Source: Chloroflexota bacterium (lineage in GTDB: Bacteria > Chloroflexota > Dehalococcoidia > GIF9 > AB-539-J10). From it: 64,000 nucleotides of DNA. The notes under the pieces are model-generated. The model did not search any database. It had not been told where the DNA came from and saw only the letters and a list, made by a program, of their open reading frames with translations. Positions 35,740 to 36,453 of this stretch are shown one piece after another (position 1 is the first letter of the stretch; every line of letters begins with the position of its first letter). The stretch lies in NCBI GenBank assembly GCA_013388845.1, contig JACAEN010000016.1:21898-85897 (forward strand), in the 5' to 3' direction. Both the position numbers and the translations under genes were made by a program.

Positions 35740-35812
35740 GGGGCTGTAGCTTAGCTGGGAGAGCGCCTGCTTTGCAAGCAGGAGGTCAGGGGTTCGAATC
35801 CCCTCAGCTCCA
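35740..35812 (+). tRNA. tRNA-Ala(TGC), CCA not encoded
   Basis: GGGGCTG/CAGCTCC acceptor with G3:U70, loop TT-TGC-AA. Confidence 0.97.
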
Positions 35813-35823
35813 TTCACGTCGAT

Positions 35824-36072
35824 ATGTTTTATGCATATATTCTTCAAAGTGAGACAGGTAATCGATATTACATTGGTTCTACAAAGGATCTATCTCGTAG
35901 AGTAATTGAGCATAATCGAGGAAAAAGCAACTCAACAAAGCCTTATCGTCCCTGGAAGCTGGTGTATTGCGAGTGTTTTCAAACTCTGGCCGAAGCCAGA
36001 CAAAGAGAACAAGAGATTAAATCGTGGAAAAGTCACGAATATCTGAGAAAAACGCTTGGATTGAACGCTTAA
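35824..36072 (+). CDS. Stand-alone GIY-YIG nuclease, copy 1 (82 aa)
   Basis: FYAYILQS...YYIGSTKDLSRRVIEHN...PWKLVY.E.F....EARQREQEIK. Confidence 0.92.
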   Translation: MFYAYILQSETGNRYYIGSTKDLSRRVIEHNRGKSNSTKPYRPWKLVYCECFQTLAEARQREQEIKSWKSHEYLRKTLGLNA

Positions 36073-36131
36073 TCAGGCAGAGCGTCCCGATTGCATCGGG
36101 GAGGTCAGGGGTTCGAATCCCCTCAGCTCCA
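36057..36131 (+). pseudogene. Degenerate tRNA-Ala copy 1 with rewritten anticodon stem
   Basis: D-arm gctt-aatcaggca-gagc, arm tcccg-attgcat-cgggg, T-arm and 3' acceptor identical to tRNA-Ala. Confidence 0.85.
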
Positions 36132-36142
36132 TTCACGTCGAT

Positions 36143-36391
36143 ATGTTTTATACATATATCCTTCAAAGTGAGACAAGTAATCGATATTACATTGGTTCTA
36201 CAAAGGATCCATCCCGTAGAGTAATTGAGCATAATCGAGGAAAAAGCAACTCAACAAAGCCTTATCGTCCCTGGAAGCTGGTGTATTGCGAGTGTTTTCA
36301 AACTCTGGCCGAAGCCAGACAAAGGGAGCAAGAGATTAAATCGTGGAAAAGTCACGAATATCTGAGAAAAACGCTTGGATTGAACGCTTAA
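36143..36391 (+). CDS. Stand-alone GIY-YIG nuclease, copy 2 (82 aa)
   Basis: Near-identical to copy 1 (A4T, G12S, L23P). Confidence 0.92.
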   Translation: MFYTYILQSETSNRYYIGSTKDPSRRVIEHNRGKSNSTKPYRPWKLVYCECFQTLAEARQREQEIKSWKSHEYLRKTLGLNA

Positions 36392-36453
36392 TCAGGCAGA
36401 GCGCCCCGATTGCATCGGGGAGGTCAGGGGTTCGAATCCCCTCAGCTCCACCA
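36376..36453 (+). pseudogene. Degenerate tRNA-Ala copy 2, ending in CCA
   Basis: ccccg-attgcat-cgggg arm, 3' end cagctcc-a-cca. Confidence 0.85.

Follow-up and report, generated by a model that had tools for sequence, protein, structure and literature searches.

A putative selfish cassette of a GIY-YIG nuclease gene and a conserved hairpin embedded in duplicated tRNA genes

In an uncultured hot-spring Dehalococcoidia bacterium, we found a small cassette that is doubled in tandem within an alanine tRNA gene, with the tRNA left unbroken. Each unit carries an ORF for an 82-aa GIY-YIG protein, the 3' end of which overlaps a degenerate copy of the tRNA-Ala, and in this copy a hairpin takes the place of the anticodon arm. 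We consider it probable that this is a selfish nuclease-plus-hairpin cassette of the Ssn type, which would live in tRNA genes, ride the tRNA promoter, and amplify by recombination between tRNA-derived repeats. The nuclease and hairpin pair is already known as Ssn/SRM; the part for which we found no published description is the tRNA-embedded layout, recurring across many phyla.

In the window (the whole stretch of 64,000 nucleotides that was analyzed), the array consisted of two units of 319 bp (638 bp in total) directly after an intact tRNA-Ala(UGC), and Tandem Repeats Finder reported a period of 319 with 2.1 copies at 35781-36450 and 97% identity. The locus contains the following features:

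35703-35732, plus strand: promoter-like site TTGCTA-18-AATAAT, a match in a consensus scan only, likely the promoter of the tRNA and the cassette ORFs
35740-35812, plus strand: intact tRNA-Ala(UGC) without encoded CCA (ARAGORN; Rfam tRNA, 72.7 bits); the ortholog in the relative L081 has CCA
35781-35812, plus strand: segment B, i.e., the tRNA variable loop, T arm, and 3' acceptor strand (Tandem Repeats Finder, BLAST with L081, alignment)
35813-35823, plus strand: spacer of 11 nt, TTCACGTCGAT, without Shine-Dalgarno sequence, homologous to the spacer of the sister cassette L001 (sequence, alignment)
35824-36072, plus strand: GIY-YIG nuclease gene copy 1, 82 aa, single-domain Slx1/UPF0213/Ssn type (Pfam, AlphaFold2, Foldseek)
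36058-36131, plus strand: pseudo-tRNA-Ala copy 1 (Rfam, 35.6 bits; no ARAGORN call; fold)
36085-36101, no strand assigned: hairpin H copy 1, TCCCGATTGCATCGGGG, the conserved element of the family (hairpin searches)
36143-36391, plus strand: GIY-YIG nuclease gene copy 2, 82 aa, with A4T, G12S, and L23P relative to copy 1 (ORF list, comparison of units)
36377-36453, plus strand: pseudo-tRNA-Ala copy 2 (36377-36450) and the original CCA (36451-36453), followed by the native right flank (sequence, L081 alignment)
36404-36420, no strand assigned: hairpin H copy 2, CCCCGATTGCATCGGGG (hairpin search, comparison of units)

Much of this had been described in an earlier, sequence-only reading of the stretch. 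The tRNA-Ala was indeed intact and without CCA (ARAGORN, Rfam, and a check for CCA, which is encoded in 6 of the 8 tRNA genes of the window), and the 11-nt gap without Shine-Dalgarno sequence and the GIY-YIG ORF behind it were confirmed by the sequence and by Pfam. The two units differed at exactly eight positions, all transitions, as had been counted, three of them protein-changing, and CCA was present after the last pseudo-tRNA-Ala copy only. Segment B forms a 32-nt direct repeat, found again at 36100-36131 and 36419-36450, that bounds each unit. The statement that no integrase or transposase lies inside was borne out as well, since we detected no ORF with recognizable function within the 638 bp (35813-36450) beyond the GIY-YIG ORFs.

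The sequence-only reading had proposed that related genomes be compared for empty tRNA-Ala loci, and one was found in the metagenomic relative L081. Here, the same tRNA-Ala(UGC), with a true anticodon arm, is joined directly to CCA and then to the same right flank, which is 86% identical over 2 kb and aligns by BLAST from window position 36419 onward; the window holds 638 extra bp. Given the empty site and the shared right flank, we conclude that the 638 bp represent an insertion. Presence and absence at a conserved site between related genomes, one of the hallmarks of free-standing homing endonuclease genes (Seg/Mob type), was observed through L081.

Alternatively, nothing at this locus may be mobile, and the array could result from slippage that duplicated an ordinary small gene in place or from assembly doubling of a single unit. 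The 32-nt repeats would permit slippage, and the read evidence is at the contig level only, with the repeat appearing as one cycle in the de Bruijn graph. Among the contigs of the source metagenome run, the flanks reached depths of 27.7 and 32.3, against 46.4 for a 347-nt cycle contig; the observed ratio of about 1.5 is close to the 1.42 calculated for two copies with these eight differences, the copy number of two being derived from one assembly and from k-mer depth in a graph that folds the repeat into a single cycle. An assembly artefact, which had been named as a possible refutation, is unlikely in view of this ratio, the eight fixed differences between units, and similar arrays, of up to seven units, in 13 of 80 other assemblies. 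Furthermore, the empty site of L081 lacks both units and not one, and the same layout and arrays recur among the 80 independent assemblies. We therefore regard slippage or assembly doubling as very improbable.

The 82-aa protein matched the Pfam GIY-YIG domain (E = 4e-17, residues 1 to 71), and the AlphaFold2 model (pLDDT 91.7) showed a beta-beta-alpha-beta-alpha-alpha fold for which Foldseek retrieved 1zg2 and Slx1. Among solved structures, the best sequence and fold matches were UPF0213 proteins (PDB 1zg2 and 1ywl) and the Slx1 nuclease domain (TM-scores of 0.64 to 0.70 for Slx1). By both Pfam and AlphaFold2, the whole protein is one 82-aa catalytic domain, and the separate domain with which homing endonucleases of the Seg/Mob type bind a long double-stranded target is absent. 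In two homolog alignments, Y16, R26, H30, and E62 were invariant and Y5 was nearly invariant, and the protein has the single-domain form by which the Ssn family is defined (about 80 to 100 aa, with catalytic Tyr, Tyr, Arg, His, and Glu). Comparison of the protein with defence-system profiles yielded no meaningful match, with PHROGs only a weak, generic match to GIY-YIG homing endonucleases, and with NCBIfam only a sub-threshold match to a group I intron endonuclease model. With dN/dS values of 0.07 to 0.37 (0.32 to 0.37 against L001), the nuclease gene is under purifying selection. Slx1 cleaves branched DNA and depends on Slx4 and a RING domain; to our knowledge, UPF0213 proteins have no assigned substrate, and neither UPF0213 nor Slx1 has a reported tRNA or hairpin context.

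The closest described system is that of the Ssn proteins (cd10448), site-specific single-strand DNA nucleases with NTS/SRM hairpins, whose defining activity is cleavage of ssDNA next to the hairpin but not of dsDNA or RNA, represented by SsnA of Neisseria meningitidis (Chenal 2025, PMC11893778). The NTS hairpin of SsnA, CGTCATTCCCGCGMAVGCGGGAATCYRG, has a TCCCG/CGGGA core; the ssDNA cut made by SsnA falls a few nt upstream of this hairpin, and SRM repeats flank 71% of ssnA homologs (PMC11893778). The catalytic Y6, Y17, and E64 of SsnA correspond to Y5, Y16, and E62 of the 82-aa protein. Kinship with Ssn was gauged through a bridging homolog, an Azospirillum gene that is flanked by four repeats matching the published SRM pattern and does not lie at a tRNA; the 82-aa protein was 38% identical to this gene product (E = 9e-14, hhalign probability 98.6%). 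The cassette thus resembles Ssn/SRM in its single-domain GIY-YIG protein of about 80 to 100 aa with the same spacing of the catalytic Tyr, Tyr, and Glu, and in a gene adjoining a short, GC-rich hairpin with a TCCCG...CGGGA core that is also dispersed in the genome. It differs in that the gene and its hairpin lie within a tRNA gene duplication, with the hairpin in the place of the anticodon arm, and in that a single hairpin at the outer end is the usual state, not the NTS-ssnA-NTS arrangement. The published SRM pattern had no match in the window and three incidental matches in the 80 loci; if the nuclease is of the Ssn type, the window hairpin would represent a different dialect from the published SRM. 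Although the earlier reading knew of no named system with this architecture, the nuclease and hairpin pair matches Ssn/SRM, published in 2025. The tRNA-embedded part of that statement stood, as a full-text literature search found no published description of such a layout, and tRNA is never mentioned by Chenal (PMC11893778).

What had been described as a rewritten anticodon stem turned out to be the conserved hairpin of the family, TCCCG-loop-CGGGA. Its consensus was GCR-T-CCCG-N5-9-CGGG-A-nGG, with T at position -1 in 91 and A at position +1 in 93 of 120 hairpins, and its density was 2.5 per kb in cassettes versus 0.44 per kb in far flanks. A hairpin with this core, shorter than the published SRM, abutted the gene in 62 to 63 of the 80 loci, and the cassettes of many phyla had it, at Ala, Val, Pro, Leu, Asp, Thr, Asn, and other tRNAs. 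Of the 41 loci of the upstream-tRNA type, about 30 had the hairpin where the anticodon arm would be (our own count from the hairpin listing); more generally, the palindrome was kept at varied positions, i.e., in the anticodon arm, T loop, D loop, or upstream fragments. Within the window, CCCGA-N3-9-TCGGG was observed 13 times versus 0.15 expected, several of these probably being ordinary terminators or helices of structural RNAs (a tRNA-Ser arm, RNase P RNA). Two exact copies of the 15-mer core of hairpin H lie in dapF:

42297-42311, no strand assigned: exact 15-mer core encoding SRLHR, absent from several orthologs of 82 to 90% identity
42454-42468, no strand assigned: second exact 15-mer core, encoding PIASG, absent from several close orthologs

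Among close relatives, the dapF hairpin differed in presence, absence, and orientation. The proposal that the rewritten stem gives immunity was not supported: the stem is positively conserved across tRNA types and phyla and is also dispersed elsewhere in the genome, and we therefore favor a recognition element over an escape mutation. The hairpin is presumed to be the element that the cassette nuclease recognizes.

We collected homolog loci (n = 80, many phyla) with a narrow protein alignment, the selection including the KSWKS motif. In 65 of the 80 loci, a tRNA lay on the same strand within 200 nt, most exceptions being at contig ends, and the tRNAs of all 80 loci comprised 90 on the plus and 4 on the minus strand. 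In most loci, a further, degenerate copy of that tRNA flanked the ORF at its opposite end, with scores far above those of random windows. [quoted passage not shown] Among the records with a tandem array were one of 4.47 Mb with the title 'chromosome: 1' and a contig of 1.66 Mb, and in the arrays of L076 and L059 the units adjoining the intact tRNA were the most alike. The window and L001 have the spacer, ORF, pseudo-D-arm, and hairpin in common, while the T arm matches the tRNA-Ala isoacceptor of each. Judging from this comparison, spacer, ORF, pseudo-D-arm, and hairpin move together between genomes, and the T-arm/acceptor repeat is always local. In L005, ARAGORN called the hairpin-bearing pseudo-tRNAs tRNA-Arg and tRNA-Gly. 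The C-terminal KSWKS motif was also compared with the hairpin sequence, in loci that had themselves been selected by KSWKS.

It could be argued that the cassette is a host-serving Ssn-type system that sits at tRNA genes for expression only. It would then modulate recombination, transformation, or ssDNA invaders, as proposed for Neisseria SsnA, and would reach its site passively, when tRNA sequence recombines homologously after gene transfer; the tRNA genes themselves would not be targets of the nuclease. The purifying selection on the ORF and the genome-wide dispersal of the hairpin, coding genes included, are in line with such a role, as is the modulation of natural transformation by SsnA (PMC11893778). 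In the protein tree, poorly resolved with 86 columns kept, clustering was strong by host phylum and was also seen by tRNA type, and much of the distribution of the cassette could therefore be vertical. Homologs were also rare on plasmids, phages, and viral contigs, with few and weak matches (5 relatives among 2.9 million viral contigs), and there is thus no evident vector for spread. However, the tRNA association is very tight and strand-specific, with the ORF end over tRNA sequence in very different phyla, and within one protein clade the cassette shifts between tRNA isoacceptors and isotypes (Ala CGC, GGC, and UGC, and Val). Recurrent arrays and decayed copies resemble selfish turnover, canonical Ssn genes such as that of Azospirillum are not at tRNAs, and known defence families were unmatched. 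We therefore find a host-serving system unlikely, and prefer the selfish cassette.

We also asked what the pseudo-tRNA contributes. In both units, the overlap of the ORF end and TAA with the degenerate tRNA-Ala (36058-36131 and 36377-36450) was confirmed, the stop falling in the D-loop region and the D-arm-like part overlapping the ORF end and the stop. The T arm and 3' strand are identical to those of the real tRNA-Ala. The copy scored 35.6 bits with Rfam, over the gathering score (the real tRNA-Ala scored 72.7 bits), and its acceptor stem was largely unpaired in both the Rfam alignment and a DNA fold. Retention of G3:U70, as claimed earlier, was seen in one register, but it is register-dependent in this mostly unpaired stem. 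The supposedly retained TGC anticodon is probably a coincidence, since ATTNCAT-type loops recur in the hairpin of relatives whose local tRNA-Ala has a different anticodon, and related genomes have the same loop in dapF hairpins. A second functional tRNA-Ala isoacceptor was rejected on the missing ARAGORN call, the mismatched and unpaired acceptor, and loops without Ala anticodons in relatives; a group I intron with a GIY-YIG endonuclease was rejected as well, the tRNA being uninterrupted and an Rfam scan of 35000-37500 returning the tRNA and chance matches only.

A function at the RNA level, with the pseudo-tRNA serving as a 3' end for processing or stabilizing the nuclease mRNA or as a guide or decoy, would fit the Rfam score above threshold, the perfect T arm, G3:U70 in one register, and an ORF that begins 11 nt past the tRNA 3' end without a Shine-Dalgarno sequence. 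Against it, little of the acceptor stem is paired, and relatives differ freely in the 5' part, whereas the DNA palindrome is kept wherever it lies. This hairpin is also found within protein-coding sequence, and SsnA does not bind RNA (PMC11893778). For the tRNA-like guide or decoy of the sequence-only reading in particular, we found no evidence; among relatives, the structure of the 5' part is not kept. We judge an RNA-level function to be distinctly improbable.

The selfish cassette would, by analogy with SsnA and SegB, work as follows. The ORF would probably be transcribed from the tRNA promoter and freed by tRNA 3' processing as a near-leaderless mRNA; such read-through expression is plausible, with tRNA-ORF gaps of 8 to 11 nt in related loci and no convincing separate promoter for the cassette ORF in a consensus scan. 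Sampled sequence words of the locus were not present in the metatranscriptome runs of the same study. The nuclease probably cuts ssDNA next to a hairpin, which may be the one in the cassette or the anticodon-arm hairpin natural to the tRNA gene, and the predicted cut lies at the boundary of hairpin and variable loop, where the duplicated segment begins. The break would be repaired by recombination, with the conserved tRNA sequence on both sides of the cassette acting as portable homology arms. As observed, a 32-nt direct repeat of the local tRNA 3' part bounds the cassette, and a full-length tRNA-Ala is retained. Tandem arrays, here of two units, may stem from such breaks or simply from unequal recombination between the 32-nt repeats, with new units arising beside the intact tRNA. 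The logic of classical homing, with an immune occupied allele, cannot be carried over directly, because an intact tRNA identical to the presumed target remains after insertion. The earlier idea of a minimal selfish or defence module spreading through tRNA homology thus survives in part: the element is integrase-free, tied to a tRNA, and behaves as an insertion relative to L081, but the immunity and guide-RNA ideas attached to it were not supported.

Several known systems share traits with the cassette. SegB, a homing endonuclease of the GIY-YIG type, is encoded by a free-standing gene within the tRNA gene cluster of phages T4 and T6 (PMC2330249; PMC13096335). In T6, it brings about the tandem amplification of a unit of tRNA and segB through break-induced recombination, which uses microhomology of the tRNA 5' end with the segB 3' end (PMC13096335). 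As with SegB, there is a GIY-YIG gene among tRNA genes, a statistically strong tRNA association, and tandem units of tRNA and nuclease. However, SegB is a phage protein with a 718-bp tRNA-plus-segB repeat unit and cuts double-stranded DNA, whereas the cassette protein is cellular, has 82 aa and a catalytic domain only, and is nearest in fold to UPF0213/Slx1 and not to I-TevI. Like the integrase islands and prophages that target tRNA genes, the cassette keeps an intact tRNA and a displaced partial 3' copy as a direct repeat, and empty and occupied sites differ by the element. Unlike them, it has no integrase or other recombinase, measures 319 bp as a whole element, carries a conserved hairpin in its partial tRNA copy, and forms tandem arrays; an integrase island was rejected here, tyrosine and serine recombinases being absent from 35813-36450. 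The pairing of a small protein with hairpin repeats recognized as ssDNA, and orphan hairpins scattered also inside genes, are shared with IS200/IS605 (TnpA) and REP/RAYT. These use HUH transposases, which cut and rejoin DNA; a GIY-YIG hydrolase only cuts, and rejoining must come from host repair. We know of no link between IS200/IS605 or REP/RAYT and tRNA genes. Chenal et al. themselves liken Ssn to these hairpin systems (PMC11893778).

If the selfish reading is true, the Ssn nucleases, described biochemically only in 2025, gain a biological setting, namely a very small self-propagating unit that parasitizes tRNA genes in phyla including Chloroflexota, Acidobacteriota, Bacteroidota, and Patescibacteria. 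For annotation, it would account for thousands of genes listed as 'GIY-YIG nuclease family protein' beside tRNAs and for many spurious or partial tRNA calls, such as those in L005. It would also suggest a possible route to tRNA gene duplication, loss of the encoded CCA, and changed neighbors, and would link the cassettes to micro-hairpins seen as in-frame insertions in essential genes. Each cassette supplies a nuclease with its probable cognate hairpin, and together they form a catalog of candidate sequence-specific ssDNA cutters. A bolder generalization, which we put forward tentatively and hold to be rather doubtful, is that this is a previously unrecognized class of transposase-free mobile DNA. 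An approximately 80-aa single-strand-specific GIY-YIG nuclease and a hairpin of about 17 nt would be enough to invade tRNA genes, with tRNA stem-loops exposed as single strands as the target and universally conserved tRNA sequence as homology arms, and the hairpin alone might be copied as a micro-element into other stem-loops and coding sequence, as in dapF.

Elsewhere in the window, a search for a decayed cassette 3' of the tRNA-Lys, which also lacks CCA, gave nothing recognizable. A second, independent cassette was found at a tRNA-Asn:

32230-32304, plus strand: tRNA-Asn(GUU), the intact partner (ARAGORN)
32327-32584, plus strand: second GIY-YIG gene, a paralog with 41% identity to the Ala-linked one, 85 aa when read from the ATG (tblastn, ORF list)
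32575-32658, plus strand: degenerate tRNA-Asn copy (sequence, hairpin search)

In this degenerate tRNA-Asn, the hairpins TCCTTCTGTAGAAGGA (32591-32606) and TCCTTCCAAAGAAAGGA (32629-32645) stand in place of the anticodon-arm and T-loop bases.

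The tRNA-Ala locus of the window consists of an intact tRNA gene followed by two tandem 319-bp units, or cassettes, each composed of a spacer, a GIY-YIG ORF and a pseudo-tRNA in which a hairpin takes the place of the anticodon arm. A sequence-only reading had described this locus accurately apart from two details, as judged from tRNA callers, the ORF, a repeat finder and a comparison of the units. The features were as follows:

35703-35732, promoter-like site
35740-35812, intact tRNA-Ala(UGC) (ARAGORN and Rfam, 72.7 bits)
35824-36072, GIY-YIG ORF of 82 codons
36058-36131, pseudo-tRNA-Ala (Rfam, 35.6 bits; rejected by ARAGORN)
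35781-36450, tandem repeat (Tandem Repeats Finder, period 319 bp, 2.1 copies)
32230-32658, second, independent cassette at tRNA-Asn

Between the 3' end of tRNA-Ala(UGC) and the ORF start there are 11 nt without a Shine-Dalgarno sequence, and the final codons and TAA stop of the ORF fall within the pseudo-tRNA. The ORF product is a GIY-YIG catalytic domain alone (Pfam E = 4e-17, residues 1-71). Exactly eight differences, all transitions, separate the two units, and three of them alter the protein. CCA is encoded by six of the eight tRNA genes in the window, but not by the intact tRNA-Ala; at this locus, it is present only behind the last pseudo-copy. Since the acceptor stem of the pseudo-tRNA is mostly unpaired, the G3:U70 pair ascribed to it earlier hinges on the register chosen. 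A TGC anticodon had also been thought to be retained. Chloroflexota relatives with CGC or GGC as the anticodon of the local tRNA-Ala repeatedly show ATTNCAT-type loops as well, which makes the TGC of the window's loop poor evidence for retention; it is probably a coincidence. Besides tRNA-Ala, one more tRNA gene of the window, tRNA-Lys(CUU) (29769-29842, minus strand), does not encode CCA; a CCCGA...TCGGG hairpin lies about 80 nt beyond its 3' end, and no recognisable cassette remnant was found near it.

Public metagenome contigs were searched with a 50-nt probe that could be matched only by the true anticodon arm of tRNA-Ala together with CCA and the window's right flank. A single contig, L081, matched, providing the empty tRNA-Ala locus in a relative, with tRNA-Ala joined to CCA and the right flank. 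The contig begins inside the tRNA, so that the right side alone is visible: its opening 64 nt correspond to positions 35749-35812 of the intact tRNA, and it then follows the right flank (36419-38449) with 86% identity across 2 kb. The window therefore has 638 bp more than L081, exactly two units, and on this alignment the two-unit stretch is an insertion. Because the tRNA-Ala of L081 encodes CCA, the loss of CCA from the window's tRNA-Ala was a result of the insertion. The tandem was checked on the assembler contigs, rather than the reads, of the source run, a hot-spring metagenome. Depth was 27.7 and 32.3 on the two flanks, compared to 46.4 on one 347-nt cycle contig, giving a cycle/flank ratio of ~1.5, compared to ~1.42 calculated for two copies with these eight differences. 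Another run of the same study contained a 174-nt contig identical to unit copy 2. A copy number of exactly two in the source population is thus likely, rather than proven, from contig depth.

With one genome scanned for each prokaryote species, >546 relatives of the protein were listed, and the best 80 were kept, coming from Chloroflexota, Acidobacteriota, Bacteroidota, Patescibacteria, Pseudomonadota, Cyanobacteriota and others. Among these best 80 of >546, a same-strand tRNA lay within 200 nt of the ORF or array in 65; the loci without one were mostly at contig ends. In total, 90 plus-strand tRNAs were found in the 80 loci, compared to only 4 on the minus strand. The arrangement of a tRNA and a partial copy of the same tRNA around the ORF also recurred, in two layouts that are mirror images. 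In the upstream type, to which the window belongs, the intact tRNA is followed after 0-70 nt by the ORF, whose end overlaps a copy of the same tRNA spanning about the D arm to the 3' end. In the downstream type, the intact tRNA comes second, its 5' end overlapped by the end of the ORF, and a 5' fragment of that tRNA lies upstream. In one array (L005:1090-1809), hairpin-bearing pseudo-tRNAs were called by ARAGORN as tRNA-Arg(tcg) and tRNA-Gly(tcc), with "anticodons" coming from the hairpin loop; tRNA gene sets are open to misannotation of this kind.

In about 30 of 41 upstream-type loci (counted from the listing), a TCCCG...CGGGA hairpin with a variable loop replaced the anticodon arm of the degenerate copy, at Ala, Val, Pro, Leu, Asp, Thr or Asn tRNAs alike, and in the downstream type the same hairpin lay at the junction with the 5' tRNA fragment. 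The consensus of 120 non-redundant hairpins was GCR-T-CCCG-N5-9-CGGG-A-nGG, with T at -1 in 91 and A at +1 in 93, and hairpin density was 2.5 per kb in cassettes versus 0.44 per kb in far flanks. From these comparisons, what had been read as a rewritten anticodon stem is the key feature, a hairpin common across cassettes. Its recurrence whatever the tRNA spoke against a stem conferring immunity, and a guide RNA role for the pseudo-tRNA was not upheld either. Of that earlier interpretation, a selfish, integrase-free and tRNA-linked module was the part that held. The boundaries of the cassette were seen from a sister cassette on tRNA-Ala(CGC) in L001, whose protein is 77% identical to the window's. 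The spacer, ORF, pseudo-D-arm and hairpin are homologous, whereas beyond the hairpin the T arm and acceptor strand agree with the tRNA of the respective genome. This places the end of the mobile part, which is flanked by a direct repeat of the 3' part of the local tRNA (32 nt in the window), at the hairpin. In some arrays (L066:1749-1860, L021:1797-1900), the unit farthest from the tRNA is cut short, either partway through the hairpin's left half or with no pseudo-tRNA at all, so the outer junction is not always tRNA-derived.

The AlphaFold2 model of the protein was a confident GIY-YIG fold (pLDDT 91.7). The top structure and sequence matches were the UPF0213 proteins 1zg2 and 1ywl and the Slx1 nuclease domain (TM-score 0.64-0.70), while I-TevI and UvrC matched far more weakly. 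At 0.07-0.37 between cassettes, dN/dS showed selection that maintains the protein's function. The protein had no match among the known defence families of PADLOC. An exhaustive search of 1.84 billion cluster representatives gave 10,051 relatives at E <= 1e-3 and 1,057 at E <= 1e-10; relatives were rare on plasmids, phages and viral contigs (5 matches among 2.9 million viral contigs). Some database "proteins" of 205-214 aa (P0117, P0118) contained two matches to the 82-aa query, and gene callers may have joined neighbouring units of an array in them. Many other database relatives had N-terminal extensions of 20-60 residues, perhaps because the called frame runs back through the upstream tRNA.

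Proteins of the Ssn family are single-domain GIY-YIG nucleases (SsnA, 94 aa, loses activity on mutation of Y6, Y17 or E64) that bind their hairpin repeat solely as single-stranded DNA and cleave a few nt upstream of it, and ssn genes usually have such hairpins on their flanks (Chenal et al. 2025, PMC11893778). The Neisseria NTS hairpin, CGTCATTCCCGCGMAVGCGGGAATCYRG (PMC11893778), has the TCCCG/CGGGA palindrome core in common with the window hairpin. The window protein was 38% identical (BLASTP E = 9e-14; hhalign probability 98.6%) to the product of a 97-aa Azospirillum lipoferum gene between sufB and sufC (L087: A. lipoferum 4B plasmid AZO_p3, 254818-256442), flanked by four repeats CGTCATCCCCGCGAAGGCGGGGATCCAG in two inverted pairs that fit the published SRM pattern. 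The locus is a textbook NTS-ssn-NTS unit within an operon. Given this identity to an SRM-flanked gene, yet no match of the degenerate SRM pattern of PMC11893778 to the window or the 80 cassettes, we take the window protein to be an Ssn-type nuclease whose hairpin is a shorter dialect, and a candidate member of cd10448. The word tRNA is absent from the text of Chenal et al. 2025 (PMC11893778), and a full-text literature search turned up no account of bacterial tRNA genes duplicated around an embedded GIY-YIG cassette. The cassette would be a known pair, a nuclease of Ssn type and its hairpin, set into tRNA genes in a self-amplifying arrangement for which this search gave no earlier report. Its nearest analogue in behaviour is phage SegB, a GIY-YIG homing endonuclease of the T4/T6 tRNA cluster. 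In recent work, SegB caused a tRNA-plus-segB unit to amplify in tandem, by way of microhomology of the tRNA 5' end with the segB 3' end (PMC13096335).

Tandem arrays built like the window's occurred in 13 of the best 80 of >546 loci. L002 had two units of 320 bp each, and a 4.47-Mb chromosome-level MAG had seven 336-bp units behind tRNA-Val(UAC) (L076:49-2500), whose unit-to-unit identity drops the farther they lie from the tRNA. The units closest to the intact tRNA were most alike in both L076 and L059 (100%, 99.7%, 98.5%, then ~92%), and, from this gradient, new units seem to arise beside the tRNA. The protein of the tRNA-Asn cassette is a long-branched paralog, 41% identical to the Ala-linked one, with the KSWKS motif replaced by SKRGK. 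In its tRNA copy, hairpins with a TCCTT/AAGGA stem, found nowhere else in the window, stand in for anticodon-arm and T-loop bases.

It is established that the insertion is bounded by the tRNA 3' repeat, that one tRNA is preserved, that the cassette-specific part stops at the conserved hairpin, that the nuclease is under selection, and that tandem amplification is recurrent, with the apparently youngest units beside the tRNA. We hold with moderate confidence an overall mechanism of expression, hairpin-side cutting, repair via tRNA homology and amplification. The tRNA promoter would also drive the ORF, for which the search gave no convincing promoter of its own. By analogy with SsnA, the nuclease would cut single-stranded DNA beside the hairpin. 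If it cuts the antisense strand of the tRNA at SsnA's distance (a few nt) upstream of the hairpin, the break would fall in the variable loop or T stem, a predicted position that coincides with the start of the duplicated segment. In a naive tRNA gene, the target may be the natural anticodon arm, flanked by GACC...C on the antisense strand. The break would be repaired from a cassette-bearing copy, with the tRNA sequence on either side as homology arms, and the arrays could be produced when repair is misaligned or the 32-nt repeats recombine unequally. The protein tree had 30 tRNA-label changes, compared to a minimum of 13 and a shuffle mean of 48.5, but because it is poorly resolved and host phylum is confounded with tRNA type, it does not fix the horizontal share of the spread.

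The hairpin also occurs outside cassettes. In the window as a whole, there are 13 CCCGA-N3-9-TCGGG hairpins versus 0.15 expected, some of which are probably ordinary terminators or helices of tRNA-Ser or RNase P RNA. Those at 51904-51918, 52240-52254 and 53612-53626 overlap RNase P RNA helices and the tRNA-Ser variable arm, and may be either native to these RNAs or colonised. Within dapF (42011-42901), the 15-mer of the pseudo-tRNA hairpin has two exact, in-frame copies, at 42297-42311 and 42454-42468. Compared to solved DapF structures, the first site is in an insertion and the second in a lengthened loop. Among DapF orthologs 82-90% identical, both segments were present in some and missing in others (ESRLHRD versus EQD and DIPIASGPIL versus DIIPIL, 4 residues each), and some had SRCNR instead of SRLHR, the in-frame reading of the reverse-complemented hairpin, with the loop flipped. 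Judging from this variation, the hairpin is a unit independently gained and lost in this lineage, as are the NTS/SRM repeats.
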